From Candidatus Iainarchaeum sp. (lineage in GTDB: Archaea > B1Sed10-29 > WALL01 > JAGHAM01), in assembly GCA_021161465.1 (NCBI GenBank), contig JAGHAM010000023.1, positions 8,895 through 72,894 of the forward strand: a stretch of 64,000 bases of DNA. The letters are read 5' to 3'. The translations under genes were made by a program, and so were the position numbers. The notes beneath the pieces were generated by a model. That model saw only the letters and a program-made list of their open reading frames with translations, searched no databases and was not told the origin of the DNA. Shown piece by piece: positions 17,297-44,401 of this stretch (its first letter is position 1; each line of letters opens with the position of its first letter).

Positions 17297-17313
17297 GTTT
17301 AGAAGGTAAATAG

Positions 17314-17998: not shown

Positions 17999-18037
17999 TG
18001 ATAAACATTTATAGCCTAGTTGTTCGTTATTTTGAGT

Positions 18038-18592: not shown

Positions 18593-18715
18593 AGATTTAA
18601 CGACATACTGCTTTCTCACGTGACTAAACTTGGCCTCACCGGGTGACCCGAACAGGTTTGGATATGACTTCAAAATTTCAAAACTTTTATAACCTAGTTC
18701 CCCGTTATTTCTGTG

Positions 18716-19267: not shown

Positions 19268-19275
19268 GTGGATAT

Positions 19276-19950: not shown

Positions 19951-19959
19951 GGTAGAGAT

Positions 19960-21049: not shown

Positions 21050-21490
21050 ATGCTAATAGAGTCCTATTTAACTGCACTGCTCCTTTGTACTTCCTATGGA
21101 AAGCCAGCTTGTATGGGTGTCCTATCATTCATAACCTCCCTAATTGTTTTCGCGTTTGTAGCGCTAACCACACTATTTTTCAGGAGAAAAAACAAAGAAG
21201 CAAACTGGTTTGCTAAACTTATGTTAACGATAGTCTATTTCACTATAGTATGGATAGCCATATGCATATATTATGGAACAAGCCCCATGGAAGGTTTATC
21301 AATACCATTGAAATATGGATTTGGTGTGTTCTTTTTATTCGTCCTGCCGTTCTCATGGGTGTATAAAAAGCTGATGAACAAGTATCCTATGCTCCCATGG
21401 CATTTCGTCCAGTACCTATGTTGCCTGGTTGCCAGCCTAATCTTTTGGGCTGCCGTAATTTTCTACTTTGGTATCTTCTCACTCGTATGA
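21050..21490 (+). CDS. hypothetical 4-TM membrane protein within the pilus cluster
   Basis: 146 aa with four hydrophobic helices. No D..GGD-type prepilin peptidase motif recognised. Confidence 0.4.
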   Translation: MLIESYLTALLLCTSYGKPACMGVLSFITSLIVFAFVALTTLFFRRKNKEANWFAKLMLTIVYFTIVWIAICIYYGTSPMEGLSIPLKYGFGVFFLFVLPFSWVYKKLMNKYPMLPWHFVQYLCCLVASLIFWAAVIFYFGIFSLV

Positions 21491-21523
21491 AAGCTTAAAA
21501 AGGATTAGCGAGTAAGGTGATTT

Positions 21524-29600: not shown

Positions 29601-31669
29601 ACATTGTATGGAACTCAACCGAAAATGGACTTGAAGACACCTGGCACCCCCTACAACTTAACAAAGAAATAGAAACGGGAATAGGCCTAAAAATCACTAA
29701 AAGCGTTGGCAAGAATGATGTCATGATACATGATAAACCAGACCTTGAAGGAGATTGGGAAGATGAACTCACAAAGGAGAGCGATAAGGTATATACACTC
29801 AAATTCATAGCTAGTGATAATGATGGTGTTGGCTCATGTATAGCAAGAATCCAACACAAAACAGATGGGAGTTATTACCTAAAATCATGCAAAGTAGTAG
29901 AGAAACTTGGGACAACTACCCCAAAGAAGGTTATATACTCTTGCCCGATGGAGCTACTGGAAGGTCCAAATGACATTACAATCAACTGCACAGACTTAAC
30001 TGGAAAAACCAATACAGGTAGATTCACGGTCACTCTAGACGAACAAGGCCCAGAGATAGTGAAAGATAGCATAAAAGTGGGTAAGTATGGGAACATAGAC
30101 GAACAAGGTACAAGAGTAAGAGCCCCAGACATAAACTTCACAGTCAAGGATGACTACTCTAAACCAGTTGAATGTAATTTGACCATCCCGCCTGCAGAGA
30201 TTTACAAGAACAATGGCTATAACTTTTTAACAACAACATATGAGTGTGAGCTAACACCAACTGGCGACCACACTGTGCTCGCCGAGTGCACAAGCCCAGA
30301 CTTCTCTGTGCTGTTCGTTAATCTTGACCCAAGCACGTGGGGGTTCTCATGCAATGATTCTCTCGGAAACGTGAGAAAGCAAGATGTGTATATGCCAAAA
30401 GGGTTGGGTGAGGAGGCTCCATCCATACTACAACTGAAGGATGACATAATGGAAGCCTGCAAGATAATAAGATACAAAAGAAGTCAACAGTACATAGAGG
30501 ACAAAGGTTTCATAGACCTAGGAGAAAATGGTTCAGTTGAGGTCCGTGATGGCGGCCAGATAGACAGGGATGGTATCCTTATGGAGATATACTACAAGAA
30601 CGACGGGAAGAGTGTAACTAGGAAAGACTTAGCTAGCCATATGAAATCACTTAATATTGATGCAGGTGTGCCAAGAGCCGCTTCCTGCTCAAAGCAAGCT
30701 GTTTGTGGAACCTCAATTGACTTAGTGCTAAAATATGCCACTGCAAACGTTGGTTCGACGATAGTGAATAAAGAAGTGGCAGAACAAGCTGAGAAGCAAC
30801 AGAAGGGATTGATTAGGAGAATATTCTCTGAATTGTATCAAAAAATAACAAAGAAAACAACTGAAGAAGTTAGTAGTGAAGTAACAGAAAAAGCAATTAA
30901 AGGTATGAAGATGCGGGCAGGGAAGGTACTCAAAGGAAGTATGAGTGCAGAGAAATTTGCGAAAAAATTCAATAAAGAATCTGTTGATGAAATTGTAAAT
31001 TTCTTTAAGAAGAATCCAGAGAAATATAAAGATTTGATAATTTCTAGTAAAAAAGATGTGAATGGGCTACCAAAACTGCTGGCCAAAGGAGAGTATAAGA
31101 CAGCAGGAATTACATTGGCAGGCATTGCAAAGAATGTCCCTGAAGCATCACCTATACTGGTAAAAGGCTTTGGAACAACATCACCTGAGGTAGCTACGAA
31201 GGCCATAGAAAGAATGTCAATGGCCATAACTAAGGAGGGTGTAGGCAAATGGTTCGTGAAGATGCTTATCATAGATGACATAAGTCGTATGCTACCTAGG
31301 GCGATTGCCGGAGATTATGCAAAGTATCTCACAGGTATAGAAGAAACACTTGATTCAAGGTTCCCAGGAGACCTGACAGATGGTGACTGTGACACTTCTT
31401 ATGACTTCTGGTCAAAAGTTGGTGCTAACATTGATGTCTTCCCACTCATTGGAGATTATGTAAAGGCGTTCACTCCAGACCCGTTCCAAACAGTGGTGTG
31501 CAGTCCAAAGAAACTGGAAGGGGGAAGATTGTATATAATTAGTGTGAAAGGGGCACAGGTCAACTTGGATTCCAAAGAGATGCCAACATGGGCACAGGTC
31601 ATGGGCAAGTGCTTTGACTCATGTGCAGACTACCAGTGCTCGGTAACAATCGTCGAGGAGAAGAAGTGA
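23636..31669 (+). CDS. giant (2677 aa) N-terminally membrane-anchored surface protein, paralog 1
   Basis: A single uninterrupted ORF. The N-terminus has a roughly 45-aa cytosolic segment (EIYAKIEDKYYAFLDYLQKRGIPVYSVIDPIE) followed by a TM helix (LPLLVGLLILILGLAYY). The large ectodomain is rich in T/N and N-glycosylation sequons. A/T box (AAAATATATATATTCAT) upstream. Confidence 0.75.
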   Translation: MQMGIDEIYAKIEDKYYAFLDYLQKRGIPVYSVIDPIEHAGIPSLPLLVGLLILILGLAYYTTAGPVGEDVTLTITSNGVAVTDAQVKALLDGTTIKSVVSRNGEAILSGLPPNKNITITIDKPGCALWSKTITPSEINDLNPQLQCESAIYSCLDISSDMVTAYVQDKDSIPPTSCEVRVHPRSNPSTSIAVGWKVENGVLHIEDPSQDNCPSKDDYVAILCDNGDYNNTISGLLSDIKLKGSITLTTTQPPEKPNATELPKIHIHVQSDTGHPLDGIIVKAVDAQCNDRASDFANAVLQAATGPNGDATLQIPNGQDFYLAASDKSGVYNEYCNSDDKYTSSLDMEAKNITIVMRVGSGTKIEVRESGTQEPIPGALVTVKDETGRSVGTPILTDSSGEANFVLYTGKSYTVEVRHRAYELIKDTVTGGEDAYIYMDPVDITQTGNLELTTVKAYGTKDRLGGVTVQLVRNDTVYAEIKTDRSGYYLLTNVVAGDYQTKVLPPGGVNYQSGPDVTIAPQNTTKTTIEVKPEKVTLSVITYVEMGGKKLRKQNVKVEMWDARYDEKIEEKTSGIERKVDFTVDKCSEVYFVLSYAENEGPYAGKKYGPLTSDPETYCGSREIKDLVLKEKPDQTTVSLTVTTPQGDEVDQLIPGNHYNALLEVALPEYTKKNTYNQVDVEMFVGETGSLLNTERTPVIIGTVGLQDLATQDPYISDVFKSDDYSFGQQPSREETGPSKYIKITITKYTPGTYVARIPLYVRKLADYETTKISYKATWVPPKGNSICSEEGCLWTRNSYQIVPEGTPQLYGLDSGAFYAYKAWLTASKNGSPITIDTPITQDAYFYLHINATARSDITSWGVKFETIPEIAEPIAYEGTIYRASGATTEITSTGLTGYTITNDKDIYALHSDDQLLLTVTMKAVSPGRCSLVPFNDLAHSLSFKVSEVPLLKKETLIAGVTATLQAKSLFEKGQDYAKDLWASYDVENETLPTNYKKFKLIFQFGNTAGETINAKLVLDAKDKSLSFTNVTVDGESNPGTGTYIQTTEFEVPSSGAEVVIEGEGTTQSTSNMDIYFWEQDTPRPDTPWATISYGKIDYSASIKAYEKGAVLKGVSENADEVRVWVYKSVDDSVSSIGGGIIEGDHVKIAYDNNSVIEWASLEPSGPYFKYVVPEDKPIRGKLTAIITSSKFGEIDETLSSSYVSFTPKSTNIKDFLNMNLVSNEEKTKDIIVASHYNEPLDMTIGNIQKDGWKFSLETTIYSLKPGTATVFMKRETQKGSGKVTIPAKGKAVIKVTASPVDVKCRYNETALLQLDVENVRKPYVYSFALNCTNGTSGVSYTTAVPTDHIVRLDIDPSTVTRFDCFNNSAESGLDTAYLCDAEQFGVSLLDAAWALYTDDYSVEHSYFYSLGKDELGQEGLSQILSRYGDKFEISHVYNSEDSAKATKTTDIVLDGKAGCGINKVVLTKINHDEDIRITITTNSSVPWCGRAAHAYLIGLLNYDQNLRPTLGKYYSFDTSMEGENVIDAIQYAKKQGNSISNTMLFSYGSAGESYSAQTIVNARAGGRPQSYIKYKDCEIMSGTDCPIFAINFFTTLKEPIIGYFDIDNKDDIHVGLVYDRSEITTEGAGNQLDTYRALFITRLLDYAVSGNMGQGIWIGSNNSQMIYIPTKDTSQNIVDLSPVTQRVLVYGKNYYDVENEEITGNRSVHVHIDIDDEPRYCVVGNLKPDGTITDSQEETPVFQPNSKDWPYGIDVFDWTLLPGNGRKRVVAYCMDKNGVTSRISVGEILLDTTGMLVFRGEQYPNTLSMYKPMITKDLFYHFIVMNKYGETTKCWMEYKDKEYMTEGEISLGTAPEDKNICNNGQNDNSPIPGVSDNWQIDDGCCYPVGGNSGNVEGSGTEKTYFFNMQEFTCNSPIVETENEEIPVEIWCMNSLGQKKKLIDVNLYRQSTDAPMFVLPGDFTFSVNGTYENGVMTSNYGGQGLYFDRNIVWNSTENGLEDTWHPLQLNKEIETGIGLKITKSVGKNDVMIHDKPDLEGDWEDELTKESDKVYTLKFIASDNDGVGSCIARIQHKTDGSYYLKSCKVVEKLGTTTPKKVIYSCPMELLEGPNDITINCTDLTGKTNTGRFTVTLDEQGPEIVKDSIKVGKYGNIDEQGTRVRAPDINFTVKDDYSKPVECNLTIPPAEIYKNNGYNFLTTTYECELTPTGDHTVLAECTSPDFSVLFVNLDPSTWGFSCNDSLGNVRKQDVYMPKGLGEEAPSILQLKDDIMEACKIIRYKRSQQYIEDKGFIDLGENGSVEVRDGGQIDRDGILMEIYYKNDGKSVTRKDLASHMKSLNIDAGVPRAASCSKQAVCGTSIDLVLKYATANVGSTIVNKEVAEQAEKQQKGLIRRIFSELYQKITKKTTEEVSSEVTEKAIKGMKMRAGKVLKGSMSAEKFAKKFNKESVDEIVNFFKKNPEKYKDLIISSKKDVNGLPKLLAKGEYKTAGITLAGIAKNVPEASPILVKGFGTTSPEVATKAIERMSMAITKEGVGKWFVKMLIIDDISRMLPRAIAGDYAKYLTGIEETLDSRFPGDLTDGDCDTSYDFWSKVGANIDVFPLIGDYVKAFTPDPFQTVVCSPKKLEGGRLYIISVKGAQVNLDSKEMPTWAQVMGKCFDSCADYQCSVTIVEEKK

Positions 31670-31713
31670 AGGTCGCTACGAAAAAGGGTCTCTTGCATCT
31701 TTGCCAAGCAAAA

Positions 31714-31724
31714 CTTTAAATAAT
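31714..31724 (+). promoter_or_regulatory. TATA-box-like element (CTTTAAATAAT) about 21 nt upstream of the start of giant protein 2
   Basis: A/T box at the spacing expected for a leaderless archaeal transcript. Analogous boxes lie upstream of 9645, 11915, 18038, 18716, 23636 and 38849. Confidence 0.35.
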
Positions 31725-31744
31725 CCTATTTGGTATTCTAAATC

Positions 31745-34700
31745 ATGGCACTTGTAGATATTTACCATCAAATAGAGGACAACTACTATTTCTTCCTTGA
31801 CTGGCTAGATGAAAAAGGAATTCCGATATACAACGTAGTTGACCCAATAGAAGCAAAAGGCATCCCAACGTTCCCACTTGCTGTTGGGATGGTGCTTCTA
31901 ATCCTCTTGCTATTGCTATCCTTAATAATAGGTATGGGCACTCAAGCAAACATGAACGTGAATGTAACCGTTACCACCAATGGCAATGCGCTGGCAGATG
32001 CCTCTGTTGTAGCCATCCAGGATGGGGAAGAAGTGAGTATAAAAACTACAGGTGATGACGGAAAAGTTTCACTCACAATTCCAAAAGCAGAAACGAGAAT
32101 AAACGTAACCGCAGAAGGGTGCCAATCTCAGGAGAAGGAGATAAATGAATCCGGGAACCTGAGCTTTGAACTAACATGTGGGGGAAAACCTGCTGGTTGC
32201 ATACCTATTTCAGCAACCATAAGCATGGTCAGGCTGACTGGTGATGACAACAAAGCACCGAAGAACTGCCACGTAACTATCTTAGATGATAAGGGAGACC
32301 CAACAGGTATAGAATGGCGCGTTGATGGCTCAAAGTTGTATCTTCCTGACCCTGATAAATATTGTATTAAGGAGAATTACACTGTCCAGATTTCATGTAC
32401 TGGGTACAAGCTGGTTGACACAGGAAAAAACATTATGAGTGAAATAAATGGGATGGGTGAGCTTGAGTTGCCATCAACAACTACACCTCCTGAGGACAAG
32501 TGTGCTCTTGGAGAAGAATGGAATGAAACTCTTGGGAAATGTGTAGAGAAACCAGTTACATGTCCAACTGGTGAGAAATGGGACAGCACATTAGAGATGT
32601 GTATTCCAGAACAAGTTGATGACGAGTATTCAATATATGTCATTGTAAAGAACAACAACACAGCCTTGTCTGGGATTCTTGTGACTGCCATAAGCTCATC
32701 TGGAAGTCAGTTAACAGAAGGCACCACCCAGGATTATACAGATAATGCTGGCAAGGCAGAGCTGTCCCTGAAAAAAGGCCAGAAGTTTAAGATAAAAGCA
32801 GAAGATGAAGCAGGAAAGTATTCTATGGTCATAACCAAAGAGTATACCGCTGACGCCACAAAAACCATCAACATCAGCATGCCAAAGGGAAGCCAGACTA
32901 CAATAAGGGTTATTGACAAGGAGACAAAGGAAAGCATTCCTTCTGCAACTGTCCTGCTCTACAAGGGGACTGAGGCATACGCAGCATTTACTACTGATAA
33001 AAATGGAAAAGTTGGTCTGACACTGCCTCCAGGAGTAACATATACCGCTTATGCATATGCCAATGGCTACAAGACCGATAAAGGCACAATCGCCGCTGGA
33101 AGCGCCATTACAATAAGCCTCCAGAAGGTATATGCACTTGAAGCAGGTAACCTAACGCTAAAAGCAGAAAATGCTTTGGACGGAAGCTCTATGGAAGGTG
33201 TTACATTCAGAATTTTCTCAAAGATTGGTAACGTGCCTTATGGTGGGTGCATCACAGGCTCAGATGGCAAATGTGCCATTTACTCCCTGCCAGAGGGCAG
33301 TTATTCTGTATACGCAACACCAAAGGGCAGTTACGATGAAGAGGACGTAGGTTCAGTTGATGTAAAGCATGGGGAAACAGTAGAAGAAACAATTAAGATT
33401 TACCCCTCCACGTTCAAATTAACGGTTTACACATGGCTGAACGGTGGCACCCCTAAGAGATGCGCGTCTGGGGCACATGTCACAATTGGGACTACAAATG
33501 ACATAGGTGTAAGCACCGAGCTAAACGACAGCTACACTGACAACAATGACTGCAAAGCAGAGTTCCATGTTTATAAGGGTCAGGATATCTGGATAAAGGC
33601 AACCTACACAGACGGTGGAAACATTCTCAGGGCAAGTGCCACATACACAGTAACTGGAGAAAAAGAAATAAACCTGATACTAACGCAACCAACAGCTAAT
33701 GTCTCGTTCAGCATGGGCGCGCTGGATATGGCTCCTGGTGATGTAAAGACCGGGACGCTATCCTTTGGTCTCCCATATTATGACAGCGACGGAACCAGGT
33801 ATAAAAACATTGAAATTAAGCTATGGGTTGGTGAAGAGGGGGATACTACAGACGCAGTAAAAACACCAGTCATGATAAACGGTTTTGAAGACTCTAACAT
33901 GCAAGGTGCTGCTGTATACGGGTACAAGAACTACCCGGGGACCACCATAGTTAGCGATACAAGCGGCGAGTACCTGAAATACCTTAAATTTGTAATCAGC
34001 AACAGCTCCGCTTACTACTCCAACAACATCAATACTTCTGTTAACGTGCCGATAAAGTTGAAAGCAAAAAATGCTTTTGAAGCCGACCAAACAATAGTCC
34101 ATGTGAGGGGTAAGTGGACCCCACCAAAAGGAAATCCAATAACTGCCGACTTTGATTTCAGGATAAATCTAACAGCGGGTACAAGCTGGTGCATGCTCCC
34201 TGGCGGAAGTGATTTCAGTGCATTTAAGGCCGGCTTCACGATAACCCCTGATGACAACGAGAGCCACTGGGAAGAGCATATGAGCACCACGAATGGCTCG
34301 GAATTCTACCTTAACATAAGAGCGATAGCCGCCAAGCAGCTTGACAGTTATAAGATAAACATGAAAACCCAGCCATCATATGGGTATTCTGTACTGAAGC
34401 TACTTCAATACTTCATTGGAAAGAATAGCCCACCAACAAATTACAAAGATGTAAACGAAGATGTATCTAGTAGTGGTATGGACCTAGAACCTGCTGACGC
34501 CTCAAAGGGTCTAGGTGACTTATATCAGTTAAACCAGGATGATGAAATCTCTTTGAGAATCAAGCTGAAGGCAATTCACAACGCAACTGGTACCAACTGG
34601 ATAAAACTATTCGATGATGAATCATGCAAGAAATCTTTTGAAATACGGGATGTGACCAACAAACCTACACCACTGCCAAACGTCACGGTTGAGGAGCACT

Positions 34701-37700
34701 ATTTCGTACAAGTTTGTCCACCAGAAGGTTACACAGGAACTATATGTAGATGGGGAGAAAGTGATGCCGATAAAATTGATAACCAGGAACTGGAACTCCC
34801 AACCTACTCGGCAGTATATGGCGAGGGCAGGAACTTTAGCATAAATCTTACCTTCAACAATATCGGTAGCACACCTGCAAACGTCCACATTGAAGCTGTA
34901 GATTCTGTGGGGGGCATAAGCTCATTGCATACGCCAGCAGATTTCACCATCCAGCCAAATAACCAGACAGAAGTTAACATAACTGGAAAGGGCGCTTCTG
35001 CCCAAGCAGGCACGATTAAATTGTACTTGTCCACATCGGCTAATGGCGCTAAAACACTATGGAGAACTATAAAGTATGGACCAGTTGACTATAACATAAC
35101 CTTGTGGGCAAATGCCTCTATCAGCGCTGGCGGAAACGAGCTGAAGGAAGAGTTAGTCAAACAAATAGACAGCGTAAAAGTGGTAGTATTCAGAAACAAC
35201 AATCCCACAACAGGCATAACAAACAATGGAAAAGTAGAATTCAATTACATCGACCCTGTGAATGGGCAGACCACTAAGGAGCTAAGAGGGGTGGATAATT
35301 ATTACATCTTTAACCATGACGCTATGAGTATCACAGCAGGGGATAGGAGTGCTGAAGTACATGTGGAGTATGGTGAGTTCGGAGGCCTAACAAAAGGTTA
35401 CCCCGTGCAGGGGATGGAGGTAACACCAGACGGAACGAGGTTCCCAGCTGATGGAGATTACACGCTGAGTGTGACCAATCTTAGAGAATCCAAGGTTGTG
35501 GGTGTGAACTCATCATGGCTCAGGTCTGCTAACTTTACACTGGATATCACCGGGTTTGATGTAGACAATGCTAAAAACAGAGGGTATGACACAATGATAC
35601 AAGTTTTCATCTACAACAGCACCAATGACCTTGTGAATACAATAACTCCAGATGGTGTCGTGAACATAACCCTGCCTGCCAAGGGAAGAGCGGACATAAA
35701 TGTCACCGTGGGGCTTTTGGAGAACAAGATATCAGCCTGCATCCAGGAACCATTCGTTGGAGAGATAAAGGTAACCCCCTGTTACCAGGACACAAAAACA
35801 TATGAATTCCATTATAGTTGTGCTGAGCTTGTTAGATACCAGCCAGCTAACAGGAAAGTTGAGTACATATTCACAAAAGACAACACAAGCTATACCGAGA
35901 GCCCTGCAATAACAGTGACCTCACTAGCTAACAAAAACCTGAATGTATTATTTGGATTCGAAAAGTATAACTCATGGTTAGACACATCATTCGAAAACTT
36001 TGAAATTAATATAACTACATTCTATCAGAATGGTGCAAAAAAGCAGACGTGCTCCCTAAATACCGAACATGATGGAACTATCAAGTGCGAGTTACCTCCA
36101 AACGGTACAGCGCAGGTGTCCATAAAGGCGAGTATAGATCCTGATAATCCGCCTGAAAAAGGAGACCTTTACATATCTTATCTACATATAACCCCAGATA
36201 GATGGCTTGAAGAGAACTTCACTTTGACGTTTAGTTATAGCGAAACTGGGGAGTACATATCCAAGTACACTGTGCATAGGGACACACATGAACCATTAGA
36301 CATAACCAAAGAAGAGGTAATAGATAATGATAATGTCTGCTGGTTTGGTGCTGGCCATTACACTTTATGCGATAGCACACAACTCTCGAAAGTTATCGAC
36401 GTTATTGGTAAACACATAAATGCGAACGGAGGGCTATTAAGGAAAGAATTTGCATTCGGGAATGATATCGCCACCATTAGCACAATCCAAACAATTGCTG
36501 GAAGCCAGGTGAAGGAAACTGAAGACGGCGCATCATATGGCGATATCGTGGTCAACATATTGACACGAGATAAGAAGATAACCTGTGGTGTGGTAACCAT
36601 AACCGCACAACAGGTAGGGGGGTTAACGCGTGTCAATATAACTGTGGATAAAAACCAACCATGGTGCGATAATGGGGAGGAACCCTTCCTATTCACTGGA
36701 TTAGCTAATTACGACGAGGATTTAGCTGAGAGCACAGGCGCGCCAGTGAAATTTATGAGGTTTGATGGAGACGCTACCGAGTTAAGCAAATTCAGGGATG
36801 CATTTGAGTACATAGACCCAGATTACATCCCAGTAGTCTTTGGATATGCTTATGCTAATGGGGAGGTATTTGATACTGGCAGTGAGAACCCGCCAATAGT
36901 GGTCCACTACAAAGAGTATAATTGCTCAGGGACGCCACCCGAAGGAACCAACGACTGCATAGACCTACCATCGTACTTACAATTCATCTATCGGGATTTC
37001 TACAACAATCCCGACTCACCAGATGGTGTAGGGTACTTTAGTTATCAGTATATAAGTACAACAGAGACAAATAATTTCTTCGTAGGTATAGCATACAAGA
37101 AGGCAATGGACGAAAGCGAACTAGACGAGCTGAGGAGGATACTGGCAAGCAACTTGATAAGCTACTGGACTATGGGAAACACATCTTGTATACAAGATAA
37201 CACAGGTGAGTTAATAGGAGAAAATTTAAATGGCAAAGTTTGCTCGATGATTGGCAAATTACCAAGAGGTGAGGGTGCCATAGACCTTAAAACCTTTGAC
37301 CCTACCAATAGAGGGTTTAAAGACTCAACTGGGAGCGATGGCAAGATTGGGCTGAACCTTACATTCGGTTCAGGTACAGTGTCATGTAGGATATGGAACA
37401 ACTGTGGTTCAAATACCTGTAAAAACGAAACCCTGATAAAAGGAGTAAATTGGGATAAGGATAACACCTATGTAGAAGTGCCTGACTGGACTGTCCCAAC
37501 AGATACTGGAGGAGGGAAACAGATTAAAGCAGAGTGCTATTCTGGTGGATACAAGGGTACTGGTGACCCTGTTTCTGCCGTCGTAGTTGTCGACAAAACA
37601 GCACCTACAGTCAGTGAAGATGAAAACTGTGACAGCGAGCCATGCTTTGAGGAAGGAGATGACCATGACCTGACATTCACAGCCACTGATAAGTATGGTA

Positions 37701-38404
37701 TAGCTTCATGCGAAGCATTTAGGGTCTATAGCGACGGTTCAGTTACACCATTAAGCTGTGGGCGTATAGGTGATTCAGATAGATTCAGGTGCTCTGGTAT
37801 AGAAAAGCCGCCAGAAGGCCAGTACCACCAGTATCCATCAGAGTACTCAGGTGACTGCGGTTCGTACCACCTATCAAGTGATGGGAGGGCGTGTCTTGAC
37901 ATAATAAACTACACCTGCACAGACAAGAATGGGAATACCGCGGAGGATAGGCAGATAAAAATCTTCTGGGGAGAGAGTAGTATTGAGGTACATGTAAAAG
38001 AGATTTACTCCCAGCTTATCAACTTAGCTAATAATGGTGTGGTAGAATACGGAAAGGTGGAACCAATTGAGTCTGGTAAAGCTGTTGTATACAACACAAT
38101 AACCAAAAATGGAGATACTCAATCTGTACCTGTGTACTACACAAGTTCAACTGAAAACGTGATAAAGTTCAACATCACTGGGAAATTTGGCATTAGCGAC
38201 CTTAGTTGCGATGACGCACATATCATAGGGCCTAATAGCGATGAGCTCACTCCCTCACAAGACCACGACTCAGCACCAGGATGGAAAGACTATACACTAG
38301 ATTTCAACCTGGAAAGCGAAGGTGAGTATGTTGTGAATATAACTTGCATAGGAAATGGGAATTACGAGGATACGCCCTCTATGAAAGTGCCCGTAAAAGA
38401 ATAG
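31745..38404 (+). CDS. giant (2219 aa) N-terminally membrane-anchored surface protein, paralog 2
   Basis: N-terminus MALVDIYHQIEDNYYFFLDWLDEKGIPIYNVVDPIEAKGIPTFPLAVGMVLLILLLLLSL is clearly homologous to the N-terminus of the 23636 gene. It shares further internal motifs with it (W.PPKGN; ...PWC...L.NYD.(N/D)L). ACTTTAAATAAT box about 22 nt upstream. Confidence 0.75.
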   Translation: MALVDIYHQIEDNYYFFLDWLDEKGIPIYNVVDPIEAKGIPTFPLAVGMVLLILLLLLSLIIGMGTQANMNVNVTVTTNGNALADASVVAIQDGEEVSIKTTGDDGKVSLTIPKAETRINVTAEGCQSQEKEINESGNLSFELTCGGKPAGCIPISATISMVRLTGDDNKAPKNCHVTILDDKGDPTGIEWRVDGSKLYLPDPDKYCIKENYTVQISCTGYKLVDTGKNIMSEINGMGELELPSTTTPPEDKCALGEEWNETLGKCVEKPVTCPTGEKWDSTLEMCIPEQVDDEYSIYVIVKNNNTALSGILVTAISSSGSQLTEGTTQDYTDNAGKAELSLKKGQKFKIKAEDEAGKYSMVITKEYTADATKTINISMPKGSQTTIRVIDKETKESIPSATVLLYKGTEAYAAFTTDKNGKVGLTLPPGVTYTAYAYANGYKTDKGTIAAGSAITISLQKVYALEAGNLTLKAENALDGSSMEGVTFRIFSKIGNVPYGGCITGSDGKCAIYSLPEGSYSVYATPKGSYDEEDVGSVDVKHGETVEETIKIYPSTFKLTVYTWLNGGTPKRCASGAHVTIGTTNDIGVSTELNDSYTDNNDCKAEFHVYKGQDIWIKATYTDGGNILRASATYTVTGEKEINLILTQPTANVSFSMGALDMAPGDVKTGTLSFGLPYYDSDGTRYKNIEIKLWVGEEGDTTDAVKTPVMINGFEDSNMQGAAVYGYKNYPGTTIVSDTSGEYLKYLKFVISNSSAYYSNNINTSVNVPIKLKAKNAFEADQTIVHVRGKWTPPKGNPITADFDFRINLTAGTSWCMLPGGSDFSAFKAGFTITPDDNESHWEEHMSTTNGSEFYLNIRAIAAKQLDSYKINMKTQPSYGYSVLKLLQYFIGKNSPPTNYKDVNEDVSSSGMDLEPADASKGLGDLYQLNQDDEISLRIKLKAIHNATGTNWIKLFDDESCKKSFEIRDVTNKPTPLPNVTVEEHYFVQVCPPEGYTGTICRWGESDADKIDNQELELPTYSAVYGEGRNFSINLTFNNIGSTPANVHIEAVDSVGGISSLHTPADFTIQPNNQTEVNITGKGASAQAGTIKLYLSTSANGAKTLWRTIKYGPVDYNITLWANASISAGGNELKEELVKQIDSVKVVVFRNNNPTTGITNNGKVEFNYIDPVNGQTTKELRGVDNYYIFNHDAMSITAGDRSAEVHVEYGEFGGLTKGYPVQGMEVTPDGTRFPADGDYTLSVTNLRESKVVGVNSSWLRSANFTLDITGFDVDNAKNRGYDTMIQVFIYNSTNDLVNTITPDGVVNITLPAKGRADINVTVGLLENKISACIQEPFVGEIKVTPCYQDTKTYEFHYSCAELVRYQPANRKVEYIFTKDNTSYTESPAITVTSLANKNLNVLFGFEKYNSWLDTSFENFEINITTFYQNGAKKQTCSLNTEHDGTIKCELPPNGTAQVSIKASIDPDNPPEKGDLYISYLHITPDRWLEENFTLTFSYSETGEYISKYTVHRDTHEPLDITKEEVIDNDNVCWFGAGHYTLCDSTQLSKVIDVIGKHINANGGLLRKEFAFGNDIATISTIQTIAGSQVKETEDGASYGDIVVNILTRDKKITCGVVTITAQQVGGLTRVNITVDKNQPWCDNGEEPFLFTGLANYDEDLAESTGAPVKFMRFDGDATELSKFRDAFEYIDPDYIPVVFGYAYANGEVFDTGSENPPIVVHYKEYNCSGTPPEGTNDCIDLPSYLQFIYRDFYNNPDSPDGVGYFSYQYISTTETNNFFVGIAYKKAMDESELDELRRILASNLISYWTMGNTSCIQDNTGELIGENLNGKVCSMIGKLPRGEGAIDLKTFDPTNRGFKDSTGSDGKIGLNLTFGSGTVSCRIWNNCGSNTCKNETLIKGVNWDKDNTYVEVPDWTVPTDTGGGKQIKAECYSGGYKGTGDPVSAVVVVDKTAPTVSEDENCDSEPCFEEGDDHDLTFTATDKYGIASCEAFRVYSDGSVTPLSCGRIGDSDRFRCSGIEKPPEGQYHQYPSEYSGDCGSYHLSSDGRACLDIINYTCTDKNGNTAEDRQIKIFWGESSIEVHVKEIYSQLINLANNGVVEYGKVEPIESGKAVVYNTITKNGDTQSVPVYYTSSTENVIKFNITGKFGISDLSCDDAHIIGPNSDELTPSQDHDSAPGWKDYTLDFNLESEGEYVVNITCIGNGNYEDTPSMKVPVKE

Positions 38405-38848
38405 TGACTGCATTACTGGAGAGGATAGTCATAAACTTGTTTGGGAGTCTGGATGAATTCTTAGGAGTGCCTCCAGAGCTAACCCTGCTTTTCCTCCTAG
38501 CAAAGCTAGCCATCATAGGCGCGCTTCTGTTTGCGGTTTACAGGTATTTCACGAAGAACAAGCTCGTGCTGGCCCTGGCTGCAGCAGTCATGGCATACAT
38601 CCTGTTTTTGTAAGCAACACTCTCGCTGCTGCGTTCCTCGCTCTCTCACAGAAAAAATGTACATTCTGCTTTTGTAGATGCAACACTGGCAAGTCAATGG
38701 TCCAAACATCAGGCAATCACAGGTTAAGCCGTTCCAGCCAGTATGGGCGCGGACTCCACTATTGCCCTCTTTTCTATGTTTTTGGGTATTGCGCTGTTGT
38801 CTGCGCTTCGAGCATAGTTTTTTATATTTTTGGCTCTTTGATTAGCTT

Positions 38849-39175
38849 ATGAACCTTGGATTCCTTGGTGACATAAAAAACACCATAGACCTGTTATTCC
38901 TTGGATTTAAGGTCGTAGTTCTTGTATTCCTTGTAGGATGGGTTAGGGGCCACCTGGGCGGAGGGATAATCGCAACAGTTGCCATACTCATCATTGGATG
39001 GCTTGTGCTCTTCAAATACTTCTATTTATTTGGGCCAATGGCAGTAATTTACCTGATATTGATAGTTGGAGGTAGTGGTGTTATAATGGATATAGCCTTT
39101 GGTAGGTCCATGTACCTCGAGGAACCATACATAGGAAAGGATTTGATGGATGGAAGGAGGCCCCCACCAATATGA
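38849..39175 (+). CDS. small membrane protein (3 TM), array member 1
   Basis: 108 aa, very hydrophobic. A TTTTTTATATTTTT box sits about 25 nt upstream of the ATG. Confidence 0.45.
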   Translation: MNLGFLGDIKNTIDLLFLGFKVVVLVFLVGWVRGHLGGGIIATVAILIIGWLVLFKYFYLFGPMAVIYLILIVGGSGVIMDIAFGRSMYLEEPYIGKDLMDGRRPPPI

Positions 39176-39548
39176 AGGTGAAAACTTGAGAACAAGTGAG
39201 ATAAAACTAAACAAGAAAGGTTTTCTCCCGCTTATAGCTGGGATTCCAACAGCCTTGATAGTTTTGATAGTGGTAATACTCCTACTGGTGCTAAGCCCTG
39301 CTATCCTTATGCAAATTCGTGAAATAAAGCTGCTTTTCCAGATATTCGCTGCGATAATCATTCTCTCATGGGTCAGAAACACCGTTGGCCCTGGGATGGT
39401 ATCAATCCTGATAAGCTTAATCCTGATATATATCTTCGTCCTTATGGTCCCCGAACTTCTCGGCGCGATATGGGCAATGTACATCCTGTTGACATTCGGC
39501 TTGTGGTCAATGATATTCTGGGGTCTGCCTTTGATTTTCAGGAAGTGA
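39150..39548 (+). CDS. small membrane protein (about 4 TM), array member 2
   Basis: 132 aa. Overlaps the previous gene by 26 nt. The alternative internal start is uncertain. Confidence 0.4.
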   Translation: MEGGPHQYEGENLRTSEIKLNKKGFLPLIAGIPTALIVLIVVILLLVLSPAILMQIREIKLLFQIFAAIIILSWVRNTVGPGMVSILISLILIYIFVLMVPELLGAIWAMYILLTFGLWSMIFWGLPLIFRK

Positions 39549-39635
39549 TTAAAAATGAAGAGTATAATGTTGAGTGCCTGTCAGAAGAGCATAAAGTTAA
39601 ATAGCGGTATTGCAAAAAAATAACTTGGTGGATAG

Positions 39636-39878
39636 ATGGGAGACATAGTCAATGATTTGAGAGTGGCTCTGACACTAGTCGTACTTGTCTACCTTGCCCA
39701 GTGGGCCATCGCTGGCACGGGCTCCAGGAAAGTAGGGATAATAGTTGCACTGGTAATAGTGTACCTAACAGTCTGGCAACACCTCATGGTTCTTATCATC
39801 GTGATAGCATTCTTCTTCGGATACGCTTTCTTTGAAGCCTTTGAGAGCACGTTTATACCACTGGATCAGGGAGGTTGA
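39636..39878 (+). CDS. small membrane protein (2-3 TM), array member 3
   Basis: 80 aa: MGDIVNDLRVALTLVVLVYLAQWAIAG... Confidence 0.4.
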   Translation: MGDIVNDLRVALTLVVLVYLAQWAIAGTGSRKVGIIVALVIVYLTVWQHLMVLIIVIAFFFGYAFFEAFESTFIPLDQGG

Positions 39879-39879
39879 A

Positions 39880-40176
39880 ATGGACACTTTTACTCTCGTA
39901 GTATTCCTGATTCTGATAATAATAGCCATACAGGCTAAAGTCTATGCAATAGCGCTGCTCCTAATGGCATTCCTCTTGTTCACCCTTAAGTCAAGAACTA
40001 TGATATTGATTGCAATAGTGGCTGGAGTTATAGGGTTCTTCTTAAACTATTCGTTCAATGTGGAGTTGCAGGTAATAATGATATTGATTGTGGTCCTGCT
40101 CCTTGCTGGTGCCATGCTCACTTCAAGGAGTGAGGGACCTGGCTCATATACGCCAAGTGCCTTTGGGGTGTTTTGA
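39880..40176 (+). CDS. small hairpin membrane protein, MDT/SAFG family member 1
   Basis: ATG 39880 is preceded by GGAGGT. N-terminal MDTFTLVVFLILIII, two TM helices, C-terminal ...GPGSYTPSAFGVF. The ORF-track start at 39832 is probably too long. Confidence 0.5.
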   Translation: MDTFTLVVFLILIIIAIQAKVYAIALLLMAFLLFTLKSRTMILIAIVAGVIGFFLNYSFNVELQVIMILIVVLLLAGAMLTSRSEGPGSYTPSAFGVF

Positions 40177-40517
40177 TGGATACTCTGACCCTTTTGCTGC
40201 TGTCACTGATAGTTATCGTTGGATTCTACACTGAATGGTGGGTTGCACTGATTGGGGTAGTCCTTCTGGTCGCGTATATTTATGGTGCAAGAGAGGGGAC
40301 ACACGCGCCAGCACCTGCTGGTGGGGTCAAGGTGCGACCAATAATCGTACAAAGGCGTTACGTTGGTCCTGAATCAATATACCCAAGAGTGATGAAGATG
40401 AGAATCAGGCCTGACTGGGATACCAGACCGTGGTTTGAACAGGCATCCGGGGCATTTGGGCGCTTAATGGGATGGGCAACCAACGCTGGCAAACCAAGCA
40501 GCAAGAGTGAAGACTGA
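40176..40517 (+). CDS. small hairpin membrane protein, MDT/SAFG family member 2
   Basis: MDTLTLLLLSLIVIV, two TM helices, PAPAGGVKVRPIIVQ, C-terminal ...ASGAFGRLMGW. The ATG overlaps the previous stop (TGATG). Confidence 0.5.
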   Translation: MDTLTLLLLSLIVIVGFYTEWWVALIGVVLLVAYIYGAREGTHAPAPAGGVKVRPIIVQRRYVGPESIYPRVMKMRIRPDWDTRPWFEQASGAFGRLMGWATNAGKPSSKSED

Positions 40518-40573
40518 CAAACCATCAACATTTTTGCAGAAGATTTAAATAATTGAACTCCGATATTTTAATG

Positions 40574-40948
40574 ATGGACAGGCCAATAGGGTTAATGGTA
40601 ATAGTTATAATACTATCAGTTGTGACTAAAGTTTACTGGCTGGCCATACTAGTTGGTATAGCAGCATTACTGGTGGCTATAGCCAGCATTGAGATAAAAC
40701 GACCAAGTCCAGTCCCATCTGGCGGCAAAGAAGAAGAGATATTAACACCTGTGATAGTTCAGGATGTTGGGGAACCGCCGTACCTTTACCCGCCAAACTT
40801 TGACTTGAAGTTAAAACCCAATGAATCGCTCATGCCATTGTATGATATAGCTGCTGGTTCATTTGGCAAGCTGTTCAGAGCAATTTATCGAACCGCCCGC
40901 GGGGACAGCCTCAGGAACTTGTCCCCAAAGAAGGTGAAGTGGAGGTAA
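40574..40948 (+). CDS. small hairpin membrane protein, MDT/SAFG family member 3
   Basis: MDRPIGLMVIVIIL, two TM helices, PSGGKEEEILTPVIVQ, ...AAGSFGKLFRAI. Confidence 0.45.
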   Translation: MDRPIGLMVIVIILSVVTKVYWLAILVGIAALLVAIASIEIKRPSPVPSGGKEEEILTPVIVQDVGEPPYLYPPNFDLKLKPNESLMPLYDIAAGSFGKLFRAIYRTARGDSLRNLSPKKVKWR

Positions 40949-40952
40949 TGAC

Positions 40953-41318
40953 GTGGATACTGACCAGCTGCTGCTGTTGCTTGTAGTTTGCGCAGGGGCT
41001 TACCTCGCTGGATACCGCGGCCTTGCAATTGGCCTTGCCATAATCACAGGGCTAGTAGCTCTGGCTGGTGGCACAAAAAAGAGCAGAAAGTATCAAACGG
41101 TCGCTATTGGCGGCGTAAATGTGCGTGGTGCGGAAATGCTTGAGCCCATAATCATTGAAAGCACTAGGGGTGCCCCATTTAGGATACCCTCAGACATGGA
41201 CATGAGGATAAATCCCAAGTGGAGTGCGACTAACCTTATAGAAAAGGCAACACAGAAGGGGCTTGCTCCGTTCGCCAGGCTTATACACAGGATGTTTTAC
41301 AGGGGGAAGTCACAATGA
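40953..41318 (+). CDS. small hairpin membrane protein, MDT/SAFG family member 4
   Basis: GTG start preceded by GGAGGT. MDTDQLLLLLVVCAG, two TM helices, GGVNVRGAEMLEPIIIE, ...GLAPFARLIHRMF. Confidence 0.45.
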   Translation: MDTDQLLLLLVVCAGAYLAGYRGLAIGLAIITGLVALAGGTKKSRKYQTVAIGGVNVRGAEMLEPIIIESTRGAPFRIPSDMDMRINPKWSATNLIEKATQKGLAPFARLIHRMFYRGKSQ

Positions 41319-41749
41319 ACGCACTGATATTTGTAATAGCGCTGCTGGTAATAGGCGCGGTCTTTGGGTCTCCCTGGCTTGCTTTGATTAGCATTGGCGC
41401 AGTTTTCCTGACAGCAATAGCATTAGTAATCGAGAGAGCTGAACAACAGGCAGCCCCAGCAGGTGGGACTGGTAGAAAGCACAAGATAATACAAGCGTCC
41501 ATGGATGACTGGGACAACGATGACACCATGACATATATGATGGCCATGTCAGGCTCAAAGCCGATATCCTTAAAATCCCCTGAGGACCCAATGAAAGCCG
41601 TAACTAGTGCTTTTGGTGCAAAAGGAAAGATACCAGCCAGTGTCGTCAGAAATGTCCTGCCTTTCAGCAACTATGGCAGGGATTCTACGTTTGAGCACGT
41701 ATTCATTGGCCTTCCAGTCAGTATTGGCAAGTTGATATCAAAAAAATAG
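41315..41749 (+). CDS. small hairpin membrane protein, MDT/SAFG family member 5
   Basis: MNALIFVIALLVIG, two TM helices, AAPAGGTGRKHKIIQ, ...VTSAFGAKGKIP. Overlaps the previous gene by 4 nt. Confidence 0.45.
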   Translation: MNALIFVIALLVIGAVFGSPWLALISIGAVFLTAIALVIERAEQQAAPAGGTGRKHKIIQASMDDWDNDDTMTYMMAMSGSKPISLKSPEDPMKAVTSAFGAKGKIPASVVRNVLPFSNYGRDSTFEHVFIGLPVSIGKLISKK

Positions 41750-41757: not shown

Positions 41758-42411
41758 ATGAAAATTAGCAATTTTATCGTTGTTTGCGCACTCCTGACAA
41801 TGATGCCACTGGCCTCTACACAGGTCATAACGCCAGAAGATATACAAAAAGAAACTGGCTGTCAGGTCTATGACACTTACTGGCTATGCCCACAGACCAT
41901 CGTCCTGGAAAATATTCCATTAAAGTATACAACTAACTTAGTTTGCTATGAACTAGACAATGAAAGTTATGGTTGCTATGGCAATGCAATCTTGTTATCA
42001 GACGCGCACTACCAAGAGTGCCAGATTTATATCCCACTACTTGCAGGGAACGAGGTCGACTACACTAAGATGCAATATAACTACAACTGCCATGATAGGA
42101 AATGGAAGAGTGGTTCAACTGTCGAGCTACTCACATACCCTGACTTGTTAAATGGAATAGATTGCCATACCACTGAAAGCAATGACTCGTACTCTGAGAA
42201 AGCATGTAAAGCTAAAGGCCAAGCCATAGTGGCAAACGCTACAATTGACGAGGAAAACGGAACAAAATACCTAATCGTTATGAGCTCAAAGCCACAGACT
42301 GGTATTATTCCAAATCTACAGAATGGTATCGTTCTGGAGACATGGCAGTGGGTTGCCATTGCATTGTTTGTACTGGTTTTGGTGTGGATGTACCTAAAAA
42401 GGAGAAAATAG
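41758..42411 (+). CDS. secreted cysteine-rich protein with C-terminal TM anchor and basic tail
   Basis: Signal peptide MKISNFIVVCALLTMMPLASTQ, 10 Cys, C-terminal ETWQWVAIALFVLVLVWMYLKRRK. Confidence 0.55.
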   Translation: MKISNFIVVCALLTMMPLASTQVITPEDIQKETGCQVYDTYWLCPQTIVLENIPLKYTTNLVCYELDNESYGCYGNAILLSDAHYQECQIYIPLLAGNEVDYTKMQYNYNCHDRKWKSGSTVELLTYPDLLNGIDCHTTESNDSYSEKACKAKGQAIVANATIDEENGTKYLIVMSSKPQTGIIPNLQNGIVLETWQWVAIALFVLVLVWMYLKRRK

Positions 42412-42873
42412 CTACTTGGTATCGAGCCGTGTGAGCATTTTCTTGTTGATTTTGATTAAATCCTCGTTAAGCCTTTTTATTGAGGCGACCAGCGGTTTAA
42501 TCTCATCAACCTCTCTCTTTAAATCAGCCAATTCTTCCCTGATAGCCTTGGTATCCTCTCCAGTAGTTACGTTTTTCTCATGTATCTCGTTTAGATGGGC
42601 GTGTATCCTCTCAAAGTGCTCCCCATGTTCACCAAGCTTCTCCATGGCAGGCTTTAGGTGCTCACCGCTCTCAAGGAGCTTCACCGCCTGGTCTGCCTTC
42701 TCACTAACATCTGCTACAGTGGTCTCGGGATTCGCCGCTGCAATTATGTCTTCTATATCCTCATCGTTCAATCCCATCTGCTTCAGGTTTGAAACTATTT
42801 CTGTTTTGGTAACGCCTTGGGCATTCATCTCTTTTACTATCCCTACTATACGATTGAAGACAGATTTTTCCAT
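42412..42873 (-). CDS. hypothetical coiled-coil protein
   Basis: 153 aa, charged and helical, no identifiable motif. Confidence 0.4.
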   Translation of the reverse strand: MEKSVFNRIVGIVKEMNAQGVTKTEIVSNLKQMGLNDEDIEDIIAAANPETTVADVSEKADQAVKLLESGEHLKPAMEKLGEHGEHFERIHAHLNEIHEKNVTTGEDTKAIREELADLKREVDEIKPLVASIKRLNEDLIKINKKMLTRLDTK

Positions 42874-42988: not shown

Positions 42989-44401
42989 GTGCTATCTGGA
43001 ATCTGGGATGAGAAGGAAGTCGCTTATTATGAGAATCCGGAGAAACGCATACTCATAGTTATATATGACAAGAAAGGGGATGAAATTGCCGGTGTTGTAA
43101 CACTGATGGCAAAGTTTTTCCTAGTTGAAGGAAATGCGACAGAACTTGCTTACTCTCTGGACAACACAATCCTCATCCAAAAAAGGACACCTTTATTTAA
43201 GGGTTCATTCATTGGGGTAGTCACGGACCCTACATACATAGAATATACACCAAGGAACTTGATTAATGAAACCGCTGAACTGTATAACAAACTTGACGAG
43301 AGAAACGCGGAAATCATGAGGAAAACTGGTGACTATAACATCAGCCTGATTTCGCTTGAATTTGCAGGTGACAAAACTAAGGAGCTATTCGGCGAGCCGC
43401 TTGCACTTCCAGCCATGGTTGTCAGGAAACCTGGTCCCAAGACTGTGATGGAAACGCCCGTGGGCAATGTAGTGCTTGGTATAGACTTAAAAGGCGAAAC
43501 AGTAAAGGAAGACATGAAGTCGTTTGCAGTTACAATCATAAGCGGCGACAAAACAAGGCTTATAACACATCTGATAGTCGAGGGTTTCATATTGAACGGC
43601 ACACCAAGCTTGATTTTTGATGGAAAGAACGAATTCACGCATCTCGATGAGCCAAACAGGCAGGCAACCGACCTGCAGAGCTATGACCCTGAGCTGGAGC
43701 CATTAAGCCTCCCTTTGAGAAGGTTTGTGCCTGGAAGTGATGTGTTTGTAAACTTAGATTCACTTAATGAAAAATTATTCGCAAACATAGCAGGGATAAA
43801 ACAAGGGAAAGAAACCGAGTTAGTGAGTGAAGTGCTCTCAAAAAAAGACATCAAGTCGCTTGGTGAACTGGCTACAAAACTAGAGGAGTTTACAAGCGAA
43901 GATGATAAATACTATGCAGCCAGAGCGATAAGAATATGCAAACTTCTTGATGAAACCTATCCAGGAGTATTCAACGGTGCGGTTGAGCCCAACGAGCTAC
44001 TCGCCCCATGGATGAAAAGGATTGGGAGAGTCGCCCTCATAGACCTCAGTGGTATCGACAAGAGGATTGCTAAGGGTATAATTTATTCTGTGCTGACTAT
44101 CTTATACAAAAAGTTAAAGGAGGAATCATCCGGTGATGAAACGCGGATAGTGGTCGCTCTTGAGGACCGTGGTGGAGATGGAGAATACATTGATAAAGAG
44201 ACAAATGCCCTGATAAAGCTTTGCTCCTCCTATGGGATGGGGATATGCCTCAGAACGCCATCAGAAAGTAATGTTGACACGGACCTGTTCACGAATGCAA
44301 CTGCTAGAGTAAAATGCATAAATGAAAAAGAAGTGTCAGTGCACCTCCAAACAAAAAACCCGTATAGGGTGAAGCTTAGGCCTCCATTAAGTGCAGAATA
44401 A
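42989..44401 (+). CDS. hypothetical protein, possibly a degenerate P-loop/HerA-like fold
   Basis: 470 aa. Contains segments resembling ATPase cores (IISGDKTRLITHLIVEGF; GRVALIDLSGIDKRIAKG; RIVVALEDRGGDGE) but no intact GxxxxGK[ST]. Confidence 0.35.
   Translation: MLSGIWDEKEVAYYENPEKRILIVIYDKKGDEIAGVVTLMAKFFLVEGNATELAYSLDNTILIQKRTPLFKGSFIGVVTDPTYIEYTPRNLINETAELYNKLDERNAEIMRKTGDYNISLISLEFAGDKTKELFGEPLALPAMVVRKPGPKTVMETPVGNVVLGIDLKGETVKEDMKSFAVTIISGDKTRLITHLIVEGFILNGTPSLIFDGKNEFTHLDEPNRQATDLQSYDPELEPLSLPLRRFVPGSDVFVNLDSLNEKLFANIAGIKQGKETELVSEVLSKKDIKSLGELATKLEEFTSEDDKYYAARAIRICKLLDETYPGVFNGAVEPNELLAPWMKRIGRVALIDLSGIDKRIAKGIIYSVLTILYKKLKEESSGDETRIVVALEDRGGDGEYIDKETNALIKLCSSYGMGICLRTPSESNVDTDLFTNATARVKCINEKEVSVHLQTKNPYRVKLRPPLSAE

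Follow-up and report, generated by a model that had tools for sequence, protein, structure and literature searches.

A fixed-order module of small membrane-protein genes beside pilus and giant-protein genes in DPANN archaea

DPANN archaea have tiny cells and reduced genomes, and most of the cultivated ones are attached to a host. In a 64,000-nucleotide (nt) stretch of Candidatus Iainarchaeum sp. DNA (contig JAGHAM010000023.1, positions 8,895 to 72,894 of the forward strand; hereafter, the window), eight small genes, referred to as S1–S8, lie behind the genes of a type-IV-pilus-like machine and of two giant proteins. This arrangement raises the question of what the array encodes and whether its products belong to the surface machinery beside which they are found. 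A first, sequence-only reading of the window had described a tight array containing a five-member, locally amplified family of membrane hairpins. Comparison across genomes revealed a module of conserved gene order, with an internal paralog structure and a persistent linkage to surface-protein genes, whereas its function is read from gene context. The reading tentatively favored here, to which we would give slightly less than an even chance, is that S1–S8, usually with a ninth product (S9), form a hetero-oligomeric complex of the cytoplasmic membrane. This complex would be specific to an Iainarchaeota–Micrarchaeota clade of DPANN archaea and would serve their surface apparatus as a socket or platform docking the acidic heads of the giant proteins.

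Gene order, promoter, and distribution of the module

S1–S8 are real genes (Table 1). Their start sites were fixed from orthologs and public gene calls, and the same eight products (108, 132, 80, 98, 113, 125, 121, and 144 amino acids [aa]) are present in the public gene calls of three other contigs. The distances between successive genes from S1 to S8 are -26, 87, 1, -1, 53, 4, and -4 nt, and Shine-Dalgarno-like sites are found at internal genes. The earlier description of eight abutting or overlapping open reading frames (ORFs) of 80–144 aa on one strand is hence borne out by the ORF list and the public gene calls; the TGATG junction at 40174–40178 was confirmed between S4 and S5, and the reported combination of GGAGGT with a GTG start was located, with GGAGGT 5′ of both S4 and S7 and a GTG start at S7.

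The A/T-rich box noticed near 38820 is the TATA-like sequence TTTTTTATATTT, approximately 20 nt 5′ of the S1 ATG. An equivalent, (C/T)TTTTA(T/A)A, is located 20–30 nt 5′ of S1 in 13 of the 14 orthologous loci; the locus without it is L021, in which S1 begins two bases past the stop codon of the giant-protein gene. On this evidence, the box is probably the promoter of a leaderless S1–S9 transcript. It is the only element recognized in the 235-nt non-coding gap (38614–38848) that separates S1 from a further small gene, S0, and Rfam returned no RNA family in this gap or elsewhere in the window. Scans for sigma-70 promoters and intrinsic terminators carry no meaning for an archaeon. S0, predicted earlier as a possible ORF with two transmembrane (TM) helices near 38437–38613, does exist, with its start at 38404 and a KYYTKN(K/R) motif; its hidden Markov model (HMM) matches are restricted to L001 (nearly identical to the window region, with S0 among its public gene calls), L004, and L014, and its association with the module is loose.

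The usual ninth gene, S9, starts 8 nt past S8. The public call (203 aa, start at 41800) lacks a signal peptide, and the ATG at 41758, preceded by AGGTGA, gives 217 aa and a signal peptide as in the orthologs. What had been overlooked is that the unit comprises nine genes behind a conserved, probable promoter of their own. In L004, two genes intervene between S8 and S9. The Micrarchaeota loci L029 and L031 each carry an S9-like gene (21297–21938 and 17372–17971, respectively) past the pilin genes, where it does not follow S8 but adjoins the gene of another large minus-strand protein (1402 and 1653 aa, respectively); the partners of S9 may therefore be large surface proteins and not S1–S8.

The distribution of the module was traced through family B, which comprises S5, S6, S7, and part of S8. 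A word-indexed search of 5.8 billion proteins returned 36 relatives, every one of them unannotated, and HMMER, run exhaustively against 1.84 billion cluster representatives, returned 105 matches at E ≤ 1e-3, including 50 at E ≤ 1e-10; barring two long, spurious ones (P0113 and P0122), the matches are 66–160 aa long. These two were considered as multi-repeat relatives and were rejected as immunoglobulin-like or low-complexity repeat proteins. Locus scans covered species-representative genomes (queried with the S6 subfamily), metagenomes, and the encoding contigs, with the metagenomes contributing just 6 further loci. The loci belong to Iainarchaeota (Diapherotrites), Micrarchaeota, and unassigned DPANN archaea. 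With per-protein HMMs, S1 through S8 were recovered in this order, and usually S9 behind them, wherever a locus spans the positions, which amounts to approximately 19 distinct assemblies. The divergent loci L019–L021 have no recognizable S8 or S9, and in one organism (L016/L026/L029) a block consisting of the giant-protein gene and S1–S5 is inverted relative to S6–S8. A gene of 267–285 aa is inserted between S2 and S3 in L019 (8039–8896) and L020 (8110–8913). No relative was found among 2.9 million viral contigs and no PHROGs match was better than E 0.05, and a viral or mobile origin was rejected on these grounds.

Orthologs of the S proteins are 30–75% identical and conserved in length. The paralogs of the window are 25–39% identical to one another, as against orthologs reaching 40–75%. 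Because each paralog has a positional ortholog and the paralogs are less alike than the orthologs, the duplications are old and the copies have been kept separately. Judged from positions and identities alike, they are ancient, fixed duplications, a pattern that would be expected of distinct subunits in one complex. The description of the family as locally amplified is contradicted, as every paralog has an ortholog at the same position in approximately 19 assemblies from at least two DPANN phyla.

Two paralogous families and the standing of S4 and S8

Family B is defined by an N-terminal TM hairpin, a P.P.GG linker, a P(I/V)(I/V)(V/I)(Q/E) strand, (Y/R)(L/I)(Y/P)P, h+h+h.P.W, and a C-terminal helix with G.(F/L)G+. 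All of these features are present in S5, S6, and S7, only the first three in S8, and only part of the first in S4. In S5, they take the form of a PAPAGG linker, VRPIIVQRRY, IYP, MKMRIRPDW, and AFGRL in the C-terminal helix, and S5, S6, and S7 have P(I/V)I(V/I)(Q/E), the strand motif h-K/R-h-K/R-h-x-P-x-W, and an FG(K/R)L helix in common. In an all-against-all blastp comparison, the pairs S5–S6, S5–S7, S6–S7, and S5–S8 gave E values of 3e-11, 6e-9, 2e-6, and 7e-5, respectively, and S4 had no significant match to any protein of the array. With profiles of 12–19 orthologs per S protein, hhalign aligned the S5, S6, and S7 pairs at 98–99% over 100–115 columns; S8 and S5 at 94% over 56 N-terminal columns comprising the hairpin, PAPAGG, and KHK(I/L)(I/L)Q; and S4 and S5 at 88% over 33 columns only, corresponding to the first helix (MDTxTL...). 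Furthermore, the HMMs of S5–S8 cross-match one another, and no cross-match between S4 and S5–S8 was obtained in either direction.

The five-member family with shared MDT and SAFG motifs proposed in the sequence-only reading is therefore solid for S5, S6, and S7, holds for half of S8, and is doubtful for S4. The motifs survive all-against-all and profile alignment in S5–S7 and in the N-terminal half of S8, and they do not survive in S4 beyond helix 1. The TSAFGAKG sequence of S8, which had been counted among them, is not conserved among S8 orthologs; S8 appears homologous in its N-terminal half (APAGG, KHKIIQ) only, and its C-terminal half has a signature of its own (LPF.NYGR...FIGLP). Likewise, the C-terminal motif of S4, EGPG.Y.PG.FGV(I/F), is kept among S4 orthologs but does not align with the family-B motif.

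S1, S2, and S3 probably constitute a second paralogous family, family A, which the earlier reading had overlooked. It is defined by a three-TM core with the loop W-(V/A)-(R/K/I)-x-x-x-G-x-G after the first core helix, and all three proteins conform to this definition. Profile alignment links S1 with S2 at 91% (67 columns) and S1 with S3 at 82% (50 columns), and reciprocal HMM cross-matches have E values from 1e-3 to 1e-5. None of 40 column shuffles reached the observed hhalign scores, with a shuffled maximum of ≤24. This control is lenient because shuffling destroys TM runs, and the cross-family scores of up to approximately 30 were therefore taken as the practical null, above which the family-A scores stand at 36–42. 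Since unrelated TM pairs attain approximately 30, both family A and the link of S4 to S5 are probable rather than certain. S3 is the best conserved subunit (36–73% identity), with D7, W23, S30, G34, T45, H49, F60, F61, Y63, and F65 invariant. An antisense ORF of 152 aa on the minus strand (39026–39484) overlaps S1 and S2 and has BLAST matches in other loci; it was rejected as a gene, being a shadow of the conserved sense genes.

Hydropathy profiles give S5–S8 one N-terminal hairpin each, followed by a tail of 74–110 residues, and S1–S4 approximately 3–4 TM helices. The similarity among S5–S7 is mostly found in the non-TM tail. An AlphaFold2 (AF2) model of S5, built with a 34-sequence alignment (overall predicted local distance difference test [pLDDT] score of 74), has a confident hairpin at residues 3–38 (helices 3–19 and 21–38; pLDDT 82–94) and a helix at residues 86–103, the middle (39–85) being extended and of low confidence. 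The tails have median net charges of +9.5 (S5), +3 (S6), +7 (S7), and +3 (S8), and because they are basic they are probably cytoplasmic under the positive-inside rule.

Surface-gene neighborhood and the proposed complex

In most loci, S1 is immediately preceded by a giant-protein homolog. The compact locus L021 has a platform gene followed by pilin genes, one giant protein of 1569 aa, and S1–S7, and in L016/L029 the giant-protein gene and S1–S5 are inverted as one block. In Micrarchaeota (L028, L029, and L031) and in L005/L030, an archaeosortase–giant–S operon is positioned head-to-head with an ATPase–platform–pilin operon; in the window, the genes from the ATPase to the S module are co-directional, and the archaeosortase and its 1544-aa protein alone diverge. 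Furthermore, an ATPase ortholog picked irrespective of S content (P0184) again has S1–S4 behind a giant-protein gene, and the ATPase ortholog and the S module apparently share a contig in at least seven assemblies, three of them confirmed and the others inferred. This neighborhood has outlasted inversion and reshuffling and is therefore the main argument for a functional link. The physical linkage of the array to the pilus and giant-protein cluster, noticed in the window, thus holds in many genomes, even with rearranged sub-operons.

The giant proteins begin with a conserved acidic head (23636–23770 and 31745–31870; ..YY.FLD.L...GIP.Y.V.DPIE..GIP; net charge -2 to -7), for which no Pfam match was found. 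The same head is present in proteins of 128–134 aa in relatives (L007, 7541–7927; L013, 108–512; L011, 1842–2237). Its position on the presumed cytoplasmic side runs counter to the positive-inside rule. In L030, the giant-protein operon begins with the gene of a 174-aa Exosortase_EpsH protein, to which the archaeosortase of the window is 47% identical. Since a C-terminal TM helix and a basic tail are found both in the 1544-aa protein (...PADW-TM-KKKKR) and in S9 (...ETWQW-TM-KRRK), the two may be sortase substrates. L030 encodes a 743-aa protein at the corresponding place, and the 741-aa protein of the window (9645–11870) is not its homolog.

In the favored reading, a surface apparatus would comprise the type-IV-pilus-like ATPase, platform, and pilins, the mini-archaeosortase, and the giant surface proteins anchored by their N-termini. 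Strict gene order, abutting and overlapping genes, the conserved TATA-like box, and homology within the paralog families are the grounds for placing the S proteins in one complex. Its membrane core would be built by the family-A proteins (3–4 TM helices each) and S4, into which S5–S8 would be inserted as hairpins with both termini inside. The basic tails of S5–S8, each with an extended, proline-rich conserved stretch and a terminal helix as in the S5 model, would then reach into the cytoplasm and dock a partner there. The likeliest partner would be the conserved acidic head that precedes the TM helix of the giant proteins, docking being proposed from the opposite charges of heads and tails. 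The giant fibers would thereby be held and organized beside the pilus machine, with the complex as their socket or assembly platform.

Several observations weigh against this reading. Charge complementarity is only suggestive; the tail of S5 was modeled at low confidence (pLDDT 53–68), and its predicted cytoplasmic site depends on the positive-inside rule alone. The conserved adjacency runs on downstream to family-B DNA polymerase (PolB) and methionine aminopeptidase (MetAP) genes, and some of the conservation may therefore be no more than the synteny of small genomes that rearrange slowly. Nor is co-regulation with the giant proteins required, given the module's own probable promoter. In L013, approximately 7.5 kb of unrelated genes (563–8186) lie between a giant-like fragment and S1. 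Finally, a search with the pilus ATPase returned 1548 proteins at E ≤ 1e-30, most of them probably not orthologs, versus 105 clusters of the S family, which is a hint, short of proof, that some pilus machines have no S genes beside them.

Known systems and competing explanations

S1–S9 and their divergent orthologs have no significant match in Pfam, NCBIfam, or PHROGs; the family-B profile returned only noise (E > 0.6) from the PDB, and a Foldseek search with the S5 model returned nothing. Searches of the open-access literature, including papers on the protein families, pili, and surface proteins of DPANN archaea, turned up no description of the module. The family is hence uncharacterized, as first suggested, and we would place the module outside every known kind, although the larger system, an archaeal type-IV-pilus-like adhesion locus, is already known.

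The S proteins are not pilins, since they lack the class III leader, a short basic segment that ends in (K/R)-G/A and is cleaved before a hydrophobic helix: their N-termini (MNLGFLGD, MEGGPHQ, MGDIVND, MDTFTL, MDTLTL, MMDRPIG, MDTDQL, and MNALIF from S1 to S8) are unlike those of the upstream genes (RGQ|AFDAFKLL, HRG|FSVFTPMVG). By analogy, the archaellum and type IV pilus scaffolds (ArlX, ArlF/ArlG, and ArlCDE) come nearest, being small membrane-anchored proteins of a FlaI-type ATPase/platform/pilin locus that are thought to scaffold or anchor their machine. However, the S proteins have no sequence or profile similarity to them, are hairpins or 3–4-TM proteins in eight fixed paralogous positions, and are encoded behind the giant proteins and not in the interval from the pilins to the ATPase; among the window proteins scanned, none matched an archaellum accessory family. 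The export gate FliP/FliQ/FliR of flagella and type III secretion systems (T3SSs) has a paralogous helical-hairpin core encoded in a fixed order in a single operon, and the likeness of the S module to it is again analogy only, with no homology, another domain of life, and no T3SS components. Scaffolds and hairpin-built gates are thus the nearest functional analogies, and neither appears to be a relative. Short NfeD and MscL likewise combine two TM helices with a tail of 60–80 residues; by contrast, the S hairpins have no Pfam match, reach MscL only at E of approximately 2 in the PDB profile search, and show no oligonucleotide/oligosaccharide-binding fold in the AF2 tail of S5.

A first alternative, which we regard as unlikely, is that S1–S8 form a membrane complex with an independent housekeeping role, for example in protein insertion, membrane homeostasis, or the transport of ions or solutes, and that its location is inherited synteny. 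The conserved promoter of the module and the extension of synteny to the unrelated housekeeping genes PolB and MetAP agree with it, as do sub-threshold matches to transport and membrane families. Nevertheless, these matches are far below threshold (10–16 bits versus cut-offs of 27–30): S3 orthologs reach 13.7–15.6 bits against MNHE of the Mrp/Mnh antiporters (cut-off 27), with no large antiporter subunit (MrpA/MrpD) in any locus, and S2 of the window (10 bits) and S1 of L021 (11.4 bits) fall short of the 30 bits of DUF2070 (PF09843). These last two matches cover overlapping regions of the DUF2070 profile, and S1 and S2 may be remotely related to it. Inherited synteny also accounts poorly for the inversion of the giant-protein gene with S1–S5 as a single block, for the abutment of S1 on the giant-protein stop codon in L021, and for the retention of the ATPase-operon neighborhood in two different arrangements, and family B, with 105 clusters in 1.84 billion representatives, has a narrower range than is usual for housekeeping proteins.

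Rather improbable is a second alternative, in which the module, the downstream HerA/VirB4-fold protein of 470 aa, and two coiled-coil proteins would form a translocation channel for DNA or other macromolecules, similar to Ced or a minimal type IV secretion system (T4SS), with the hairpin proteins in the roles of VirB2, VirB3, CedA1, or CedA2. Small 2-TM proteins beside a VirB4-like protein are the layout of Ced and T4SS loci, which the present one recalls by analogy; in more than 12 loci, among them the most divergent, the module is followed by a coiled-coil gene on the minus strand and then by the gene of the 470-aa protein, which has weak sequence matches to HerA and CedB (14.9 bits for CedB, cut-off 700). 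The Ced or minimal T4SS partner, however, is a VirB4/CedB protein with intact Walker A and B motifs, and 13 orthologs of the 470-aa protein show no conservation of the Walker A lysine (ISGD--KTR, ITGKDTR, VFGPDTR); the protein is therefore probably no active ATPase and probably unable to drive translocation. HerA has an N-terminal barrel, to which the predicted β-rich N-terminal domain of the 470-aa protein looks closer than to VirB4. No S protein matches the models of VirB2/TrbC, VirB3, or CedA1/CedA2 in Pfam and NCBIfam (E ≤ 0.1–1), and no VirB6/CedA-like polytopic protein was identified at the locus. Moreover, insertions lie between the module and the 470-aa gene in L007 and between S8 and S9 in L004, no 470-aa gene is seen close to the split module of L016, and the constant company of PolB suggests that this gene belongs to a DNA-metabolism block.

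A more speculative combination, to which we attach little probability, is that S1–S8 are the membrane core of an unrecognized DPANN host-contact organelle. The pilus-like machine, giant fibers, archaeosortase-processed proteins, and a HerA-fold ring would be assembled around a hairpin-built channel, through which the symbiont would take up host lipids, nucleotides, or DNA. Recent local amplification of a lineage-specific hairpin family, which the tandem paralogs with common motifs might suggest, is very improbable in view of the positional ortholog of each paralog across phyla and the lower identity among paralogs than that reached by orthologs. That the ORFs are spurious and their resemblance due to chance can practically be dismissed: TM segments do inflate profile scores, as the unrelated hhalign pairs show, but the S5–S7 similarity is mostly outside them, and the strong matches of the exhaustive search and the orthologs of approximately 19 assemblies speak against chance.

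For DPANN host attachment and the uptake of host material, the module of nine genes in fixed order, with two protein families without a relative of known function in at least two DPANN phyla, is a concrete object of study. If it is the socket or channel of the apparatus, it would represent a new kind of cell-envelope complex and a specific metagenome marker for the apparatus; if it is a mere syntenic housekeeping complex, a major archaeal lineage would still possess a hitherto undescribed membrane complex of eight subunits. Cultivated Micrarchaeota may encode orthologs, which would make the module testable.

Table 1. Coordinates in the window of the S module and of neighboring genes.
Feature	Position	Strand	Description
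Secreted protein	4425–9059	-	1544 aa; C-terminal TM helix, basic tail; follows archaeosortase
Mini exosortase/archaeosortase	9034–9612	-	192 aa; TIGR04178 37.7 bits, cut-off 23
FlaI/TadA-like ATPase	11915–14200	+	PF00437 6e-21; NCBIfam FlaI 3e-40
Polytopic platform protein	14181–16271	+	696 aa
Pilin-like genes (run)	16272–21029	+	Class III signal peptides
Pilin-like protein	21524–23590	+	688 aa
Two giant proteins	23636–38404	+	2677 and 2219 aa; N-terminal head, then one TM helix
S0	38404–38613	+	69 aa as publicly called (L001); 2-TM; abuts stop of giant protein 2
TATA-like box	38818–38829	+	Read in the sequence
S1	38849–39175	+	108 aa; ~3 TM; family A (probable); loop motif GWVRGHLGGG
S2	39150–39548	+	132 aa; ~4 TM; family A (probable); loop motif WVRNTVGPG
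S3	39636–39878	+	80 aa; ~3 TM; family A (probable)
S4	39880–40176	+	98 aa; ~4 TM; helix 1 (MDTFTL...) family-B-like
S5	40176–40517	+	113 aa; family B; basic tail
S6	40571–40948	+	125 aa; family B; near-invariant EEILTPVVVQDVGEPPYLYPP
S7	40953–41318	+	121 aa; family B; AEMLEPIIIE(S/T)TRGAPFRIP
S8	41315–41749	+	144 aa; N-terminal half family B, C-terminal half its own
S9	41758–42411	+	217 aa; signal peptide, Cys-rich extracellular domain, C-terminal TM helix, KRRK tail
Coiled-coil protein	42412–42873	-	153 aa
HerA/VirB4-fold protein	42989–44401	+	470 aa; Walker A lysine not conserved

Downstream of the module, almost every locus has a minus-strand coiled-coil gene, the gene of a 450–510-aa protein corresponding to the 470-aa protein, a second minus-strand coiled-coil gene, PolB, and MetAP; in addition to PolB and MetAP, the window encodes deoxyhypusine synthase. 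Entries with the locus tags J7L23_033xx, from a metagenome-assembled genome assigned to Candidatus Diapherotrites, match the window proteins exactly; this DPANN lineage corresponds to the Iainarchaeota of GTDB. In L007, a Cas12f/TnpB-like gene and a nucleotidyltransferase gene (11883–15309) are inserted between S9 and the coiled-coil gene. ARAGORN called a transfer-messenger RNA (tmRNA) at 63464–63803 on the plus strand, overlapping the end of an ORF (63086–63535); the call is probably a false positive, Rfam having no match there, and to our knowledge archaea have no tmRNA. The pilus ATPase and the PolB of the window have no intein. Inteins are carried by the pilus ATPase orthologs P0159 and P0162 and, with LAGLIDADG domains, by the PolB of L004 (16397–19984), L007 (from 18240), and L013 (14388–17936).

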